Part shown: piece after piece, positions 4,819 to 35,499 of the stretch
How the letters are laid out: every line of letters begins with the position of its first letter
How positions within the stretch are numbered: position 1 is the first letter of the stretch
Virus record (IMG/VR): IMGVR_UViG_2740892107_000010
Coordinates: 1 to 35,640 of that record
Length of the DNA stretch: 35,640 nucleotides
Reading direction: 5' to 3' (one strand)
DNA from: a virus
Taxonomy: Duplodnaviria > Heunggongvirae > Uroviricota > Caudoviricetes
Made by a program: the position numbers and the translations under genes
Notes under the pieces: model-generated
The model's input: only the letters and a program-made list of their open reading frames with translations
Databases searched by the model: none
What the model was told of the DNA's origin: nothing

Positions 4819-4937
4819 GTAATCATCATGCACACACAAAAAAACCGCTTGCCATGCCGCAATCAGTCAGGTTACATTTCCGCTGCACCTCATAAAACGG
4901 GTGCCGGGATTTCCACCCCGCTGACAACTACAGCGCA

Positions 4938-4959
4938 CAACCGCGCCAGCGGTTTTTTT
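4938..4959 (+). terminator. Rho-independent terminator
   Basis: Stem aaccgc / gcggtt with loop gcca, followed by T7 (4952-4959), downstream of the 4267-4818 gene. Confidence 0.55.
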
Positions 4960-5138
4960 GTGCGTACTGTATCGCCACGTCTTTTTCGCACACGAATTAT
5001 GGTGGGGCGTACGGGGCCGACTTCGGTCGGGCCGGGTTCTGTAGTTGCCGGTTGTGGAAACCCTGTACGTCTCACCACCCCGAGTTTTCCACCTCTGGAT
5101 GGTGAGTTTTCAAAACTTGCAACTACAGAGGCCACACC

Positions 5139-5369
5139 ATGGCAAACCGCAAACAGCACCGCGCTATCGCGGAGCGTCGTCACATCCAGACTGAAATCAA
5201 CCGCAGACTTTTCCGCGCATCACGCGTCGCGCAAATCATGCACATCAATATGCTGCATGAGCGCAGCCACGCACTATCAAACATTTATTCCGCCTCTGTT
5301 TTCAGCTATCTGGCGGATGATCTGCACGAGCTTCAACAGCTCATCCAGCAGCAAAACAAACTCCATTAA
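5139..5369 (+). CDS. Hypothetical small protein
   Basis: 76-aa ORF with GAGG ribosome-binding site. Confidence 0.5.
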   Translation: MANRKQHRAIAERRHIQTEINRRLFRASRVAQIMHINMLHERSHALSNIYSASVFSYLADDLHELQQLIQQQNKLH

Positions 5370-5441
5370 TTCCTGTTCCGGGCCTTTCCTGCACCTTGCG
5401 GCGGGAGGCCTTCGCACATCTGTAACAAGAGGATTGCCGCA

Positions 5442-5807
5442 ATGATTCTCGCCGACGACTTTCTTGAATACCTGCTCAACACAGAACGTGATCTTGCCGC
5501 TCGCGTGCGTGATCGTTATGACATGTACCTGAAATCCCTGCCTGTACCGCAGCTCGCTGACGGAAAGATTGTTATTGATGGTCGCTACATGATTGACAGC
5601 CACGAGGGAAATTACAGGCTTTACCGCATTGAAGGTGGCACCCCGTCCGTTATTGGCATTTACCAGCGCCCATCCTCTGCAATCGTCGATGTGATTGCCG
5701 ACAGCATCCGCATCACACATCGCCATGCCGACACAGAAGACACCGTGCTGGAAATTCAGTGGCTGGCTACAGTCTGCCGCGACACCCTGAATGGCATGAC
5801 GAAGTAA
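5442..5807 (+). CDS. Hypothetical protein immediately upstream of A
   Basis: 121-aa ORF with AGAGGA ribosome-binding site. Confidence 0.55.
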   Translation: MILADDFLEYLLNTERDLAARVRDRYDMYLKSLPVPQLADGKIVIDGRYMIDSHEGNYRLYRIEGGTPSVIGIYQRPSSAIVDVIADSIRITHRHADTEDTVLEIQWLATVCRDTLNGMTK

Positions 5808-8697: not shown

Positions 8698-9657
8698 ATG
8701 AAAATTTGTATCGACGACGGCTCCACCAACATCAAGCTGGCATGGACTGAGAACGGCGAACGCCGCAACGCCATCAGCCCGAACAGCTTCAAGTCGGAAT
8801 GGTCTGCGCCGTTCGGTGGCACGCATCCCGCGAACTACATGCTTGATGGCGTGCGCTATGGCTTTGATCCGGTCAGCGATCGCTTTGTCCAGACGACTGA
8901 CACGCAATACCAGTACAGCGATGTGAATGTAATCGCCATTCATCACGCGCTGGTCAAATCAGGCATCACACCACAGGAAGTGGATGTGGTTGTCACCCTG
9001 CCACTGAGTGAGTATTTCGACACAAACGCACAGCCGGACATGGCCAACATCAACCGCAAAAAAGCGAACGTCATGCGCCCGGTGGAGTACCAGAACGGCG
9101 AAGCATTCACTATCCGTAACGTACGGGTTATGCCTGAATCCATTCCGGCTGGCTTTAAAGCACTGGCTGACATGAGTCCGTTTGAATCCCTGCTGATTGT
9201 GGATTTAGGCGGAACCACGCTGGATGTGGCAAAGGTTCAGGGACAACTGGCAGGTATCAGCCAGGTGTTTTGCGATCCACACGTAGGCGTTTCCCTGATG
9301 GCCGATGCCGTACTGTCGGTGATGGCCACTAACGGTATGCGTACCAGTCACCACATCGCCAATACCATTATCGAACATCGCCATGATGAAGCCTGGCTGC
9401 GCCAGCACATCCACAATGACGCGCATTACGCCAGCCTGATGGCGGTTATTCGTGAAAAGGAAGAAACACTGAAACAACGCGTGATCCGCGCGCTGGCGGG
9501 TTTTTCGGGTTACGGGCGGGTGATGGTTGTCGGTGGCGGGGCGGAGATTGTGGCACCCGCTATCCGCGAAGCCTGCGGAGTTAATGCGACTTTCATCGCG
9601 GACGGGGTGCCACAGTTTGCTCTGGTTAATGGGCTGTACGCAATGGACAAGGAGTAA
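8698..9657 (+). CDS. parM: ParM/StbA-like actin-family ATPase
   Basis: N-terminus MKICIDDGSTNIKLAW...ISPNSFKSEW...YQYSDVNVIAIHHALVKSGI closely resembles plasmid R1 ParM as I recall it (MLVFIDDGSTNIKLQW...). Confidence 0.8.
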   Translation: MKICIDDGSTNIKLAWTENGERRNAISPNSFKSEWSAPFGGTHPANYMLDGVRYGFDPVSDRFVQTTDTQYQYSDVNVIAIHHALVKSGITPQEVDVVVTLPLSEYFDTNAQPDMANINRKKANVMRPVEYQNGEAFTIRNVRVMPESIPAGFKALADMSPFESLLIVDLGGTTLDVAKVQGQLAGISQVFCDPHVGVSLMADAVLSVMATNGMRTSHHIANTIIEHRHDEAWLRQHIHNDAHYASLMAVIREKEETLKQRVIRALAGFSGYGRVMVVGGGAEIVAPAIREACGVNATFIADGVPQFALVNGLYAMDKE

Positions 9658-9660
9658 ACC

Positions 9661-9973
9661 AATGACGACACCAACCAGACGAATAAGTTTCTATCTGAAG
9701 CCTGCCGCCGTCAAGAACGAAGGCGAAGCATGCGCCTGGCTGGACAGCCTTACACCAGAAGCCCGTAAAAACGGCCAACGCGTGGCTTTTCTGGCTGGTC
9801 TGGCGCTTCTGAAAATGAATCCGGCAGAGGCTTACCGACTGGCAGCATGGGCTGACGATGAGGCGTTATCAGTGACACAAACCAGGACAGAACGCCCCCT
9901 GTCACAGCCAGTACCAACCGCACAGATAACCAGTCAGATGGCCGGAAATATCAGGGCATTATTTCCTGAATAA
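9661..9973 (+). CDS. parR: ParR-like adaptor protein
   Basis: 104 aa directly after parM; RISFYLKP...LDSLTPEARK...AFLAGLALLKMNP...ALFPE resembles R1 ParR as I recall it; AGGAG ribosome-binding site. Confidence 0.6.
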
Positions 9974-10036
9974 CACAACGTCAGGGCGAGTTCGCCCTGA
10001 TCTCCATCTCAGAACATAAACAAGAAGAGCGACTTA

Positions 10037-10420
10037 ATGAGCAAAATCAACTATCAGGCATTACGTGAACGTTATTCACCTGCACCAGTACCAAAATGCC
10101 CTATTTGCGGCGAAGAAATGTCAATTCAGCGAATATCTGGAGCACTGGTTGTTTATGGCTGCTCCGGTTATGGTGATGATGGAGATTTCAAAATTGGTCG
10201 AACTCTTGCCGACGAACATTATGAAAAATCACGCGTAACAGTGTTGGATGTCGGGGATCCTGAAGTATTGGCGCTACTTGATTGGCTGGAAACCAAAGAC
10301 AACCGAATCGCTGAACTGGAAAAAATCGCCACTGACTATGCACTTAAATTCCAGAAAGCACAGGACGCATTAAAGTACGCCGCTTTGCTGCATAGCAGGA
10401 CAGTGCAGCTACAAGACTAA
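10037..10420 (+). CDS. Hypothetical protein with N-terminal CxxC zinc-ribbon-like motif
   Basis: 127 aa; CPICGEE ... YGCSGYG; helical C-terminal half. Confidence 0.55.
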   Translation: MSKINYQALRERYSPAPVPKCPICGEEMSIQRISGALVVYGCSGYGDDGDFKIGRTLADEHYEKSRVTVLDVGDPEVLALLDWLETKDNRIAELEKIATDYALKFQKAQDALKYAALLHSRTVQLQD

Positions 10421-25982: not shown

Positions 25983-26006
25983 AGGCGCTTACTGCGCCTT
26001 TTTTTG
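25983..26006. terminator. Bidirectional rho-independent terminator
   Basis: Stem aggcgc / gcgcct with loop ttact, A-run before and T7 after; overlaps the last codons of the convergent acetyltransferase gene. Confidence 0.65.
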
Positions 26007-26531
26007 TCTTATAACAGGAGTTATTTCGTTTATATATATTGAGTTGGAAGGAATAGATTTTGTTACCAGAGCATGAGCACCTATCGTAACGTTATCACCG
26101 ATATTAACTTGCCCACCAAGGATAGATGAATTGCAACCTATATCAACATTATCTCCAATAGTAATCATTGCCTCATTGGAAGGGGTTCTTAGACCAATAG
26201 TAACACCTTGCTTTATATGTAGATTTCTCCCTATCACACAGTTTTCTGTAATAACAATACCTGATAAGTGAGCAATATCTAAGCCTGGCCCTATACTCAC
26301 TGTTAAAGGAATCTCAACATTATAATCGCGATGAAGGTTTGCTCCGATGCGTTTGCCCACCCGGCGCATGAACCCTCCTCTGCTGTATAGATAGCTGGCC
26401 ACTCGCCACCAAAACATAAAGTGTTTTCGCCTATTGCGTCTGGTGCGAGTTAAAGCTTTTCTCCATGAAAACTCATGGTTTCCGCCTATAACTTCTATTT
26501 TTATACACTCCTTTAATGTTTTTATATCCAT
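25989..26531 (-). CDS. Hexapeptide-repeat (left-handed beta-helix) acetyltransferase, AT-rich cargo gene
   Basis: 180 aa with repeated [LIV]-G-x4 hexads (IGDNVDIG, VNIGDNVTIG, VIGRNLHIKQGVTIG); AT-rich; convergent with the tail-fiber operon. Confidence 0.75.
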   Translation of the reverse strand: MDIKTLKECIKIEVIGGNHEFSWRKALTRTRRNRRKHFMFWWRVASYLYSRGGFMRRVGKRIGANLHRDYNVEIPLTVSIGPGLDIAHLSGIVITENCVIGRNLHIKQGVTIGLRTPSNEAMITIGDNVDIGCNSSILGGQVNIGDNVTIGAHALVTKSIPSNSIYINEITPVIRQKKAQ

Positions 26532-32288: not shown

Positions 32289-32445
32289 AGCTTCAGCCCC
32301 TTGTATCCGTTAAATGATTCGGCAACAATCATCACCCACCACGCGCGTAATCTCACCCCTGCGCCGTTCTCCCGCCACGGCGACAACAAAAAGCAGTAAC
32401 CCCCTCCGCACGCACATGCGACCATGCTGCACAGGGAGGGAGCAG

Positions 32446-33555
32446 ATGACCGACACCACCATGCAATTGCTCAGTCAGAGCACAGACCCCGTAAAAATGC
32501 CGGATTTTGATATTCTCGCGGAGGGTAAAACGCTGTCCGGCGTGGCAGAGCGCCTGATGAGCCTGTCGCTGACCGACAACCGGGGATTTGAGGCAGACCA
32601 GCTCACCATCACGCTGGATGATGCGGATGGTCAGTTGCAGCTACCGCCACGGGGCGCGCGCCTGACGGTTCTCATTGGCTGGAAAGGCGAACCGCTGACA
32701 GAAAAAGGGTCTTACATTGTTGATGAAATCGCACACGAAGGACCGCCAGACAGGCTGACTGTTTCAGCCAGAAGCGCAGATTTTCGGGATGAATTTAACG
32801 TTAAACGTGAAGTGTCCTGGCATGATGTGACCGTTGAGCGCGTGGTATCCGCCATCGCTCATCGGTATGGTCTGAAACCGCAAATCAGCGAAATGCTGAT
32901 GGATATTGAAATCGACCACGCCGACCAGACCGAAGAAAGCGACATGTCCTTCCTTACGCGCATGGCGGAAATGCTGGGCGCAATCACTACGGTAAAAAGC
33001 GGTAATCTGTTATTCATCATGCCAGGTGGTGGCGTGAACGCACAGGGCCAGCCGTTGCCCTCGTTCGCCATTACACGCAGCAGCGGCGATCGCCATCAGT
33101 TCCGTATTGCTGACCGCGAGGCGTATACGGGGGTACGCGCCTACTGGCTTGATCTTAATTACGGGAAAAAGAAAAAAGTCAGCGTGAAACGCCGTAAACC
33201 GCCAAAACCCAAAAAGGAGAAAAGCAGCAGCCGTGAAGGTGATTATATGGAAGGCGCGGAAGGCAATGTGTTTGTGTTACGCAAGACTTATCAGAACGAG
33301 CAGGCAGCAAGACGCGCAGCGGCGGCAAAGTGGCAGCAACTACAACGCGGAGCCGCATCATTCTCCATCACGCTGGCGCGTGGACGTGCAGAACTCTATC
33401 CCGAAATGCATGGCACGGTGACAGGCTTCAAAAGTGACATCGACAATCAGGACTGGATTATTGCAAAAGCCGAGCACACCATTGATAACAGCGGCTTTAC
33501 CACGCAGCTTGAGCTTGAGGCAAAAATCCCGGAATGGATAGCAGAAACAGCGTGA
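32446..33555 (+). CDS. D: Tail protein D (P2 late control gene D family)
   Basis: About 369 aa from ATG 32446 with GGGAGGG ribosome-binding site; the longer upstream ORF start at 32314 looks like an artefact. Confidence 0.8.
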   Translation: MTDTTMQLLSQSTDPVKMPDFDILAEGKTLSGVAERLMSLSLTDNRGFEADQLTITLDDADGQLQLPPRGARLTVLIGWKGEPLTEKGSYIVDEIAHEGPPDRLTVSARSADFRDEFNVKREVSWHDVTVERVVSAIAHRYGLKPQISEMLMDIEIDHADQTEESDMSFLTRMAEMLGAITTVKSGNLLFIMPGGGVNAQGQPLPSFAITRSSGDRHQFRIADREAYTGVRAYWLDLNYGKKKKVSVKRRKPPKPKKEKSSSREGDYMEGAEGNVFVLRKTYQNEQAARRAAAAKWQQLQRGAASFSITLARGRAELYPEMHGTVTGFKSDIDNQDWIIAKAEHTIDNSGFTTQLELEAKIPEWIAETA

Positions 33556-33646
33556 ATGTCTTAAATGTATTAGTTCAGATATGTACTAGCAATAAACATA
33601 GTTAGAAAGGCCGCTAACGCGGCCATATTAATTAAAACTCCAGTTA

Positions 33647-34816
33647 CTAATATTGAGAAAGATAATCAGCGACTCCATCTGCAGGGTTTCGCCCACCAGT
33701 ATAAATTGTGCCTAATTCTTGAGGTGTAACATATGTTGTAGGCCAAATGGCCATATTTTTAAAATAGTTATCTATTTTTATTCTTTGAAGTTCTTTAAAG
33801 AGATAATCTTCTAAGTCATTTCTTTTTAGACAGTTAACATAATAAGCAGCCGCACTTGCTACTATATCTACAATTTGTAATTGAGGATACTCTTGTGATG
33901 AATGGAATGTCAAAGAACGAGCTTTAATTGGCAATTCAAATTTTCTTCGATCATAACCATATGCCTCCGTAATTTTTGATATATCCATAAATTTATCAAA
34001 AATATCTTTCTTCTCTGTAATAGCTTTGGAATCGTCATGCTTAATATAAAAACCATTAGGGTATAATTTACCCCATTCTACACAGTGTCTAAAGAGGCTT
34101 GGTATAGATGGATCTAATGTGCTTTTCTCAACACCTTCCAATATATCATCAATATCGCTTCTGGTAATACTAATTCTGTTTATTATATCTGTGAATATCT
34201 TATCACTTGAGCATATCTTTAACTCATCAATTACCCTGTAAAATTCATCAATTGACTCAGTCGATTGGCTTCTGATCATATTCATAAAACACTGATACAT
34301 TACCTCTGTTTTTTCCTCCCCACAGAAAGCAGGGAAACAGAAATAGTAAACATTAGACAGAGCTAGATTCTGTCCATTTATATAAAGATCTATTCCTCTA
34401 TTAGAGCACCACGTCTCGATCAAAATATCAACAATCTTTGCTGTTAGCATGTATTTTTTATCGACCAAGTATATTTTAACATTCTCTTCATTGACATATT
34501 TGCTTTCAAGAAGCCTAATGATGCCATCCTGACCAGATTTTCTACGTCTAAGAGTTTTAAAGTGGGCTTCTGTTGGAGACTTGCTTCCGGTTAGTTCTAA
34601 TGCCTTAAGCGCATCCTGTTTACTAATACTACTTGAACTTAAGGTAAAAACAGGTTGCAATGGATCGAGTAAATTTCCGCCAGTATTACCTGATTCATCA
34701 AAAAATATATCAGGCTTTATATACAACATTTTATTTATCTTTGCCGCTAAGTTTCTTTTTTTCTCATTTTCTCGCTTAATTTTATTATCTCGCCTACGTT
34801 GACTATTCTTTCCCAT
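33647..34816 (-). CDS. AT-rich 389-aa cargo protein of unknown function (DUF3800-like N-terminal motif, tentative)
   Basis: Low GC; GAGG ribosome-binding site 5 nt upstream of ATG 34816; N-terminal IFFDESGNTG motif that I recall as typical of the DUF3800 family; inserted between D and ogr on the opposite strand. Confidence 0.7.
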   Translation of the reverse strand: MGKNSQRRRDNKIKRENEKKRNLAAKINKMLYIKPDIFFDESGNTGGNLLDPLQPVFTLSSSSISKQDALKALELTGSKSPTEAHFKTLRRRKSGQDGIIRLLESKYVNEENVKIYLVDKKYMLTAKIVDILIETWCSNRGIDLYINGQNLALSNVYYFCFPAFCGEEKTEVMYQCFMNMIRSQSTESIDEFYRVIDELKICSSDKIFTDIINRISITRSDIDDILEGVEKSTLDPSIPSLFRHCVEWGKLYPNGFYIKHDDSKAITEKKDIFDKFMDISKITEAYGYDRRKFELPIKARSLTFHSSQEYPQLQIVDIVASAAAYYVNCLKRNDLEDYLFKELQRIKIDNYFKNMAIWPTTYVTPQELGTIYTGGRNPADGVADYLSQY

Positions 34817-35048
34817 AAATACCTCACAATCTGAATTAGATATCCCAATTTAACGCATTAATAACATAATGTTATGATATCACACAATCAAAATAACGTG
34901 CTGATTTTAATGTATCAGGTTTGACTAGCTATTCTTTGATAAGCGAATAATAAGAATGTCAGCCCCTCAACTCAAAGCGGTTTAGTCAGTTGGAATCGGA
35001 GCTAGTAGAACTTAAAATAACAGAAGCACCACGTTAAGGGAGGTCTCT

Positions 35049-35309
35049 ATGTTCCGTTGTCCGCTTTGTGGCGCATCTGCCCGTATCCGCACAAGTCGTC
35101 CGGAAAATGATTCAAACACCGTGCGGCAAAAGTATTACCAGTGTAACAACCTGGAATGCGGCGTATGCTTCTCAACACTGGAAGCCTTCCATAAATTCAC
35201 ATCAAAACACGCCTCCGCCGTTCACTCTTCAGAAGGTATCCCGTGGCATGAGCTGCCAGCTTCACACAGGGGAAACAATCAGATGAGTTTGCCTTTACCT
35301 CAGAACTAA
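35049..35309 (+). CDS. ogr: Ogr/Delta-family zinc-finger late transcription activator
   Basis: 86 aa; MFRCPLCG...QCNNLEC gives a C-x2-C-x22-C-x4-C finger like P2 Ogr; GGGAGG ribosome-binding site. Confidence 0.85.
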   Translation: MFRCPLCGASARIRTSRPENDSNTVRQKYYQCNNLECGVCFSTLEAFHKFTSKHASAVHSSEGIPWHELPASHRGNNQMSLPLPQN

Positions 35310-35499
35310 CAGGCAGAATTGCCGGATTAACAAAAAAGCGATAGATTACGCGCGGGTGCCTTTCGGCTGATGGTCGGAGGGAATACCTGAAGGCCAGATG
35401 TGGAAAGGCCCCGGAAAACATTTTTGTTTAACCGAGGCCCTAACCGTCTACCCTAAGCAAGTGATAGGTTAGCGCCTCCCCGAAAAAGGAGCAAGCGCT

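Follow-up and report, generated by a model that had tools for sequence, protein, structure and literature searches.

The window analysed here, the complete 35,640-nt stretch of the IMG/VR virus record IMGVR_UViG_2740892107_000010, carries an AT-rich gene between the tail gene D and ogr of a P2-related phage genome. This arrangement raises the questions of how the gene came to lie there, what kind of protein it encodes and whether it may protect the lysogen against other phages. The original prediction, made from the sequence, had taken it for a horizontally acquired gene and a candidate single-gene defence system and had pointed to a motif reminiscent of DUF3800 proteins.

An AT-rich gene under purifying selection between D and ogr of a P88-like prophage

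The window represents a P88-like prophage (Xuanwuvirus, Peduoviridae), the flanks of which match the phages P88, 520873, 500465-2 and others at 91–96%. Since the sheath, tube and tape-measure genes occupy the minus strand and D the plus strand, a layout also found in P88 itself, the prophage is to be regarded as P88-like and not as canonical P2. A prophage with an identical cargo region adjoins ihfA-pheT in E. coli O104:H4 and other strains. The distance from the stop of D to the start of ogr amounts to 1493 nt in the window as opposed to 42 nt in phage P88, and the gene in question lies within this interval, as had been proposed:

32314..33555, plus strand: tail / late-control gene D, given as the longest open reading frame; the start equivalent to that of P88 lies near 32446-32455
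33647..34816, minus strand: DUF3800 / RNase-H-fold coding sequence, 389 aa (open reading frame list, Pfam, 34-sequence alignment, structure model, Ka/Ks)
34822..34825, minus strand: ribosome-binding site GAGG, 5 nt before the ATG (sequence; (G)GAGG is kept in the Klebsiella, Enterobacter, Kosakonia and Pantoea copies)
35049..35309, plus strand: ogr, encoding the Ogr/Delta zinc-finger activator of late genes (open reading frame list, annotation)

The minus-strand reading frame spans 1170 nt and begins with ATG. Its GC content is 33.2% (26.2% at third codon positions) compared to 51.9% for the whole window, and a sliding analysis shows the GC fraction dropping from 0.52–0.57 in the tail genes to 0.31–0.37 exactly across positions 33500–35000. 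A GC content of 33% identifies the coding sequence as foreign, and an open frame of 1170 nt at such AT content is no chance event. The Ka/Ks ratio is 0.08 when compared to the Klebsiella orthologue and 0.11 for both the Yersinia and the Leclercia orthologues; hence, the reading frame is a real gene under strong purifying selection. Coordinates, base composition and the position of the GAGG sequence all agree with the earlier description of an AT-rich, opposite-strand reading frame with its own ribosome-binding site. The product is listed at NCBI as WP_000517778.1, 'DUF3800 domain-containing protein', an accession for which we found no mention in the literature. A hok/gef addiction gene is situated next to the DUF3800 gene in this prophage.

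The gene moves together with its leader and a terminator-like hairpin

Horizontal acquisition, which had likewise been suggested, is borne out by two observations. The segment 33606-34966 (1.36 kb) has counterparts of 80% nucleotide identity in islands outside prophages in Klebsiella, Enterobacter, Kosakonia and Pantoea, and of the 5426 complete E. coli genomes no more than 36 possess the DUF3800 gene, in each case within the prophage. The 1.36-kb unit consists of a 150-nt leader, the coding sequence and a GC-rich hairpin:

34817..34966, minus strand: leader / promoter region of 150 nt that moves with the gene (67–70% identity to the copies in other genera)
34947..34975, minus strand: predicted sigma-70-like promoter (TTGAGT-17-TATTAT, 9/12), the best match upstream of the DUF3800 gene
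33609..33624, no strand assigned: hairpin GGCCGC-taac-GCGGCC in the interval where D and the DUF3800 gene converge, also conserved 3' of the gene in other genera

The hairpin marks the 3' limit of the mobile unit at position 33606 and probably acts as a bidirectional terminator that also serves the convergent gene D. As the leader is 67–70% identical between genera, it is under mild constraint only; it folds no better than shuffled sequences (z = +1.0) and displays essentially no covariation. An inverted repeat of the Klebsiella-type leader was dropped as a feature because it is degraded in the window copy. Neither a second reading frame nor an antitoxin was found within the cassette, and a search for terminal repeats of the 1.36-kb unit gave none.

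The product is a DUF3800 protein with a predicted type-2 RNase H-like core

To assign the protein to a family, we employed profile searches, which turned the suspected DUF3800 membership into a clear match. The Pfam profile DUF3800 (PF12686) scores 41.2 bits (cut-off 21; E 3.5e-10), with profile positions 2–148 of 149 aligned to aa 37–325, and the spread of a 149-position profile across this range is indicative of a large insertion. DUF3800 is the sole Pfam match, so that no TPR domain is apparent by Pfam, and PHROG 12991, a family of unknown function, also matches the protein. A PADLOC v2.0.0 scan returned 0 families at E≤1 and an NCBIfam scan no match. None of these profile searches connected the protein to a housekeeping or structural family, an outcome that the original prediction had named as refuting.

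Full-length relatives of 355–400 aa form 154 clusters in a collection at 90% identity, and all close homologues carry a precomputed PF12686 match. A profile search among representatives at 50% identity yielded 1773 matches at E≤1e-3, 427 of them at E≤1e-30. Alignment of 34 homologues (42–85% identity) revealed D40, E41, D130, E134, H260, D261, S263, Q312, Q314 and D317 as invariant. The DUF3800 family is marked by an N-terminal DES and a C-terminal QxxD motif (PMC7736814), both of which are present (D40-E41-S42 and Q314-I-V-D317) and invariant in the 34 sequences; the D-E-S-G-N-T-G motif noticed at the outset corresponds to residues 40–46 and is equally invariant. Residues 1–33 form a K/R-rich N-terminal helix that is absent from most relatives and characterizes a gammaproteobacterial subclade. 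Its conservation (N4 and S5 at ≥90%) supports translation from the annotated ATG.

An AlphaFold2 model calculated from the 34-sequence alignment (pLDDT 85.5, pTM 0.83) exhibits an RNase H-like fold with type-2 topology. The nearest fold is that of RNase HII/HIII, with which Foldseek agrees in rank and not in significance. Since Foldseek retrieved nothing from the PDB at E≤0.001, a solved structure of a DUF3800 relative does not seem to be available; querying PDB sequences with the family profile likewise gave nothing meaningful, and among viral models Foldseek returned a weak match to two metagenomic siphovirus DUF3800-type proteins. The RNase_HII Pfam profile does not match the protein, and hhalign of the family against E. 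coli RnhB resulted in a probability of 0.3% and no relationship; hence, it is the fold that connects the protein to RNase H.

In the model, the core is interrupted by an inserted helical region of some 130 residues (approximately aa 120–251). Strand 1 terminates in D40-E41, D130 and E134 lie in the first core helix, which precedes the insertion, strand 4 terminates in H260-D261-D262-S263, and Q312, Q314 and D317 are found in the last core helix. The positions of the carboxylates on these modelled secondary structure elements fit those of a type-2 RNase H (D-E, D, D). Two strongly basic patches are invariant, EAHFKxLRRRKSGQD (E83-x-H-F-K-x-L-x-R-R-K-x-G-Q-D97) and GYDRR (G287-x-D-R-R291), and these patches probably hold nucleic acid together with the K/R-rich N-terminal helix. 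The helical insertion is probably a regulatory or sensing module.

Relatives reside in defence-rich neighbourhoods and keep no common partner

In 25 loci of different genera, we surveyed all reading frames up to 7 kb from the gene. No neighbour is conserved across these loci, which is in line with the proposed single-gene nature of the system; the largest cluster, a small integrase-type protein tied to type I restriction-modification (R-M) or integrase islands, occurs in 4 of the 25. An Aeromonas integrase island contains genes for a TIR protein, the DUF3800 protein, a CHAT-like protein and Hachiman, while a smpB-adjacent island in Klebsiella combines Shango and an AAA_15/21-HNH pair with the DUF3800 gene. 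The V. cholerae relative is located beside a type I R-M system, with only 22 nt to the upstream reading frame, and a Pseudomonas relative lies near a SEFIR/TIR protein. A conserved FRG-191aa-DUF3800 block is found in Yersinia in Tn3-type contexts, beside NA-iREase and RelA_SpoT genes. The Photorhabdus relative lies directly downstream of a 712-aa reading frame and an integrase-containing region; this locus may be another P2-like prophage, and Phage_GPA was found once in the pooled neighbour scan. When the 132 pooled neighbours were scanned with PADLOC and Pfam, type I MTase, HamB, SngC, integrases, TIR_2, PIN_12 and AAA_21 were the commonest families in a raw tally. Recurrence of the gene in defence islands and prophage hotspots is apparent from these loci, again as raw counts.

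More distant relatives extend this distribution to other sites of P2-like phages. A distant homologue of the same architecture (98.7% probability by hhalign, E 2e-16 across 286 columns) occupies the Z/fun hotspot in both the P2-like phage 899 and Yersinia phage GMG73, and 'StbA + DUF3800 + Plasmid_stab_B' has been listed among the cargo of the gpA-portal hotspot (Rousset 2022, Table S5A; PMC9122126).

The D-ogr junction is a cargo hotspot

We then compared the D-ogr interval across relatives. D/ogr flanks related to those of the window occur in about 1600–1640 of the 5426 complete E. coli genomes, from which alleles were sampled at even spacing down the match ranking. Among the 37 sampled alleles with both flanks, 17 are empty (one of them with IS600) and 20 contain cargo of at least nine kinds. 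The DUF3800 gene is thus not a constant part of the junction, whereas its presence in all relatives would have refuted the original prediction, and the D-ogr site is a cargo hotspot with cassettes of at least nine kinds and roughly half of its alleles empty. The cassettes that were fetched and scanned are the following:

the DUF3800 gene of this window
a 500-aa PIN_4 protein
a 379-aa SEC-C-motif protein
a PRTase with a PsyrT-like C-terminus plus a 185-aa protein
a DUF2971 protein matching the PADLOC candidate PDC-S31
a 340-aa protein with a weak HEPN_RiboL-PSP match
unannotated proteins of 132, 221, 384 and 465 aa

The borders of the cargo are conserved as well:

33556..33605, plus strand: left junction arm (…CTTAAATGTATTAGTTCAGA…), common to alleles with unrelated cargo and absent from the empty P88 allele
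34967..35048, plus strand: right junction arm (…GTCAGTTGGAATCGGAGCTAGTAGAACTTAAAATAA…) with the ribosome-binding site of ogr, common to cargo-bearing alleles
34990-35018, plus strand: predicted promoter-like site in the right arm, possibly for ogr
35002-35005: ISKpn26 insertion in the right junction arm of 2011 O104:H4 outbreak strains

Because unrelated cassettes share the same arms, we consider the arms a property of the D-ogr site and not of any cassette. An 8-nt direct repeat of the AACTTAGA type is found on both sides of the cargo and in a single copy in the empty allele.

Comparison to known DUF3800-containing systems and prophage morons

Since DUF3800 proteins are known from several immune contexts, we compared the gene to each of these. 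DUF3800 has been described as a fused or adjacent effector of type VII retrons and modelled on RNase H2 (Mestre et al. 2020, PMC7736814). The protein resembles this effector (DefenseFinder 'Retron_VII_2 DUF3800') in its PF12686 match, its N-terminal D-E and its predicted RNase H2-like fold, and both are found in anti-phage or mobile-element settings. The differences are nonetheless considerable. Whereas the type VII proteins lack the Q of QxxD (PMC7736814), Q312, Q314 and D317 are invariant here; owing to the helical insertion and the basic N-terminal helix, the protein is roughly double the size of the 149-position Pfam domain; the PADLOC models miss it; and neither a reverse transcriptase nor an msr/msd RNA adjoins the gene or the 25 related loci. 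More specifically, the cassette contains no reverse transcriptase reading frame, RVT is missing from the 25 Pfam families encountered most often in the 132 neighbours, and beside the gene no msr/msd RNA was found by Rfam, the leader having no stable or covarying structure.

DUF3800 nucleases with an RNase H fold are also accessories of some V-A2 and VI-F CRISPR loci (PMC10910872, PMC12669027), and a TPR-DUF3800 protein accompanies a branch of Cas12a2/Cas12a3 (PMC10910872, PMC12669027, bioRxiv 10.64898/2026.01.16.699850). The common denominator is a DUF3800 module of RNase H fold in an immune locus, the role of which is putative in the CRISPR loci too. In contrast to these, the protein stands alone, without TPR, cas genes or array, and is surrounded by D and ogr: no cas genes or CRISPR array were found in the window, and cas families are absent from the 25 most frequent Pfam families of the 132 neighbours.

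Eleven structured RNA motifs (DUF3800-I to -XI) as well as the drum and skipping-rope RNAs have been described as neighbours of DUF3800 genes (Weinberg et al. 2017, PMC5737381). Although the protein belongs to the same family, scanning the window together with four related loci at the gathering threshold detected none of these motifs, and an Rfam 15 scan of positions 33300–35400 at E≤10 gave only chance-level matches to unrelated families. This DUF3800 subfamily thus seems to work without such a structured RNA.

The closest parallels in gene organization are the single-gene defence morons of P2-like hotspots (old, tin, fun/Z, Rst_DUF4238 and others; Rousset et al. 2022, PMC9122126), which are likewise AT-rich and independently transcribed and occupy variable prophage sites where sister phages carry unrelated cassettes. 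They differ in site, gpA-portal or Z/fun instead of D-ogr, and in protein family. A validated stand-alone DUF3800 defence system was found neither in PADLOC nor in the literature searchable for DUF3800, where a full-text search turned up no experiment on such a protein, and in the DefensePredictor supplementary tables 'DUF3800 domain-containing protein' occurs in the feature and annotation tables only.

A putative stand-alone immune nuclease

Since the relatives adjoin Hachiman, Shango, type I R-M and TIR genes, and since DUF3800 recurs in type VII retrons and CRISPR loci, the gene is, by association, a candidate for a defence function. We favour the reading, to which we assign a probability of roughly 60%, that it encodes a self-contained nuclease of RNase H fold and serves as a prophage-encoded anti-phage or superinfection-exclusion gene. 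The gene would then represent a self-contained moron cassette in the variable D-ogr site, composed of promoter and leader, one coding sequence and a terminator. As the cassette runs against the phage late operon, we infer that it can be expressed during lysogeny, when the late genes are silent. Its product would be a nuclease with a type-2 RNase H-like core, for which D40/E41, D261(/D262) and D317 are the candidate active-site residues, D130 and E134 being invariant as well. Triggered by infection, the enzyme might cut an infection-specific nucleic acid such as RNA-DNA hybrids, R-loops or primers of replicating phage DNA, or alternatively an essential structured RNA, and thereby would either block phage replication or abort the infection. 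The enzyme would in effect be a retron-type effector that is equipped with its own sensing module and needs no retron.

Two other explanations are unlikely to about the same degree. According to the first, the protein is a counter-defence or phage-fitness nuclease that destroys immune nucleic acids of the host (retron msDNA, DRT cDNA, guide or signalling RNAs) or processes phage replication intermediates, so that the benefit would fall to the phage and not to the lysogen. The fold and the link of DUF3800 to retrons make RNA-DNA hybrids such as msDNA plausible substrates, anti-defence genes likewise cluster in variable regions of mobile elements, and the gene adjoins the late-gene activator ogr. 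However, an own leader and terminator in antisense orientation to the late operon is the layout typical of a lysogen-expressed moron and not that of early anti-defence genes, and a benefit for the phage makes little sense for those near-identical units which reside in chromosomal integrase islands and Tn3-type contexts without phage genes.

The second explanation holds that the gene is one part of a split system and depends on a partner encoded elsewhere, for instance a non-coding RNA, reverse transcriptase or Cas effector. In all published DUF3800 contexts, the protein does indeed have a nucleic acid or another protein as its partner, and the FRG-191aa-DUF3800 block is conserved in the Yersinia copies. 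Yet no partner is kept in the 25 loci and neither RVT nor cas families rank among the 25 top neighbour Pfam families. The lack of Rfam DUF3800 motifs, the unstructured leader (z = +1.0) without covariation and the distance of only 22 nt to the upstream reading frame in V. cholerae speak against an RNA or protein partner, too.

Less probable still is a selfish or addiction element, that is a toxic nuclease or homing-type cassette that promotes its own mobility or exerts post-segregational effects without any immune benefit. While the compact unit recurs across genera and element types, a hok/gef addiction gene is adjacent in the prophage, and conserved junction arms and the 8-nt direct repeat lie on both sides of the cargo, the unit itself contains neither an antitoxin reading frame or structured antisense RNA nor a transposase, recombinase or terminal repeats of its own. 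The arms are shared with unrelated cassettes and hence owned by the site, and the strong purifying selection across long divergence points to a function useful to the carrier.

A housekeeping-type paralogue of RNase H or a decaying, functionless gene is very improbable: although RNase HII/HIII is the closest fold, the gene is accessory and horizontal and not housekeeping (33% GC, 36 of 5426 E. coli genomes and always within the prophage), the protein shares 7–12% sequence identity and no profile match, RNase_HII Pfam included, with type 2 RNases H (RNase HII, HIII and eukaryotic H2A), it adds the 130-residue helical insertion, beta-hairpins (aa 283–305) and a basic tail, of which insertion and tail are absent from RNase HII, and decay is excluded by a Ka/Ks of ~0.1.

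Implications for phage defence and for the O104:H4 lineage

The annotation of the gene as DUF3800 is already known. A stand-alone DUF3800 subfamily with a helical insertion as defence candidate, the recurrence of DUF3800 in three different P2-type hotspots and the D-ogr junction as a rich cassette site, on the other hand, all appear to be undescribed so far. If the gene protects on its own, a DUF3800 nuclease of RNase H fold would constitute a complete defence system. This would provide a handle on a domain that is shared by type VII retrons and the Cas12a2/a3 and Cas13 loci and also accompanies 11 orphan RNA motifs, and an immune RNase H directed against RNA-DNA hybrids or structured RNAs would imply a distinct mode of self/non-self discrimination. 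We would go further only tentatively, at slightly less than even odds: the gene might found a widespread family of stand-alone immune nucleases (427 clusters) that combine an RNase HII-like core with a helical sensor domain of their own and attack RNA-DNA hybrids or structured RNA arising in phage infection, with D-ogr as the third and as yet little explored defence hotspot of the P2 family and its other cassettes (PIN, HEPN-like, SEC-C, the PRTase pair and several unknowns) as new defence genes. Screening could draw on at least nine further small cassettes at this site, the majority of them unannotated.

Because the gene is part of a prophage of the O104:H4 lineage and intact in the 2011 outbreak strains, it may shape the phage susceptibility of a clinically important clone. 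A disruption of the DUF3800 gene by ISKpn26 in the outbreak strains was considered and rejected, as the insertion at 35002-35005 is located upstream of ogr.

Cassettes and junction arms at the D-ogr site

Besides the DUF3800 gene, at least nine other cassettes, most of them without annotation, occupy the site between tail gene D and ogr in E. coli (L052-L059) and in the phage loci L002 and L003:

PIN_4 protein, 500 aa
SEC-C-motif protein, 379 aa
PRTase with a 185-aa protein
DUF2971 protein (PADLOC candidate PDC-S31)
HEPN-like protein, 340 aa
proteins of 132, 221, 384 and 465 aa, no family

By position, every one of these cassettes is a defence candidate. Independently of the cargo that they carry, the cargo-bearing alleles (L002, L003, L052, L054, L057 and L058) have conserved junction arms in common, which lie in the window as follows:

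33556-33605, left junction arm, AACTTAGATGYATTAGYYCAG
34967-35048, right junction arm, CAGTTGGARTC.GAG..AGTA.AACTTAGAATAG

The empty allele of phage P88 contains only one copy of AACTTAGAATAG, and the cassettes are therefore flanked by an 8-nt direct repeat. Taken together, the shared arms and the flanking repeat suggest that the D-ogr site underwent one ancestral insertion, after which cassettes were swapped between the arms.

In the 2011 O104:H4 outbreak strains (L063), an IS5-like element, ISKpn26, is inserted at CTAG (window 35002-35005), 43 nt before the start codon of ogr, and leaves the DUF3800 gene intact. This copy is absent from the 2009 strains and from the window. As the element splits a promoter-like site (TTGGAA-17-TAAAAT, 34990-35018), its insertion may cripple late-gene activation of the prophage.

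DUF3800 relatives in other contexts

Yersinia enterocolitica harbors DUF3800 copies of 70% identity (L060-L062, 5488-9170) within a conserved block of three genes encoding a 451-aa FRG-domain protein, a protein of 191-195 aa and the DUF3800 protein. This block recurs in three distinct settings, Tn3-type or plasmid, and may represent a multi-gene version of the DUF3800 system. A distant homologue of 348 aa (22% identity, hhalign probability 98.7%) is encoded by the P2-like Escherichia phage 899 (L064, 3483-4529) in the Z/fun hotspot, which is flanked here by the genes for tail-fibre assembly and for the sheath, and is accompanied by a 461-aa unknown protein; a homologue of this type is also present in Yersinia phage GMG73. 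The homologous gene of Oligella, of a Vibrio and of Halomonas eurihalina (L035, L036 and L038) is broken up as two ORFs; such split copies, probably pseudogenes, point to turnover of the DUF3800 family.

Further cargo, early-region RNAs and the prophage end

Further features of the window prophage are:

4828-5442, Ash-family ORF, which comes after the C4 RNA module
4885-4959, +, isrK (Rfam gathering-level match, 63.6 bits)
4995-5082, +, C4 antisense RNA (Rfam gathering-level match, 80.5 bits)
8698-10417, +, gpA-portal hotspot cargo: StbA/ParM, Plasmid_stab_B and an Ead/Ea22-like protein
25992-26531, -, hexapeptide-repeat transferase-like ORF, 180 aa
35500-35640, +, hok/gef-family toxin gene after ogr (also L001, 7945-8085)

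By their Rfam matches, isrK and the C4 RNA make up a C4 immunity RNA module of P1/P7 type, which this P2-family prophage carries in its early region. StbA/ParM is an actin-like segregation ATPase, and for sister phages the listing of the gpA-portal locus includes a DUF3800 protein, WP_000654460. The 180-aa ORF, possibly an acetyltransferase moron, lies on the opposite strand directly after the tail-fibre assembly gene, which is the Z/fun-type hotspot position. The hok/gef toxin gene sits at the prophage end adjoining ihfA and extends beyond the end of the window.
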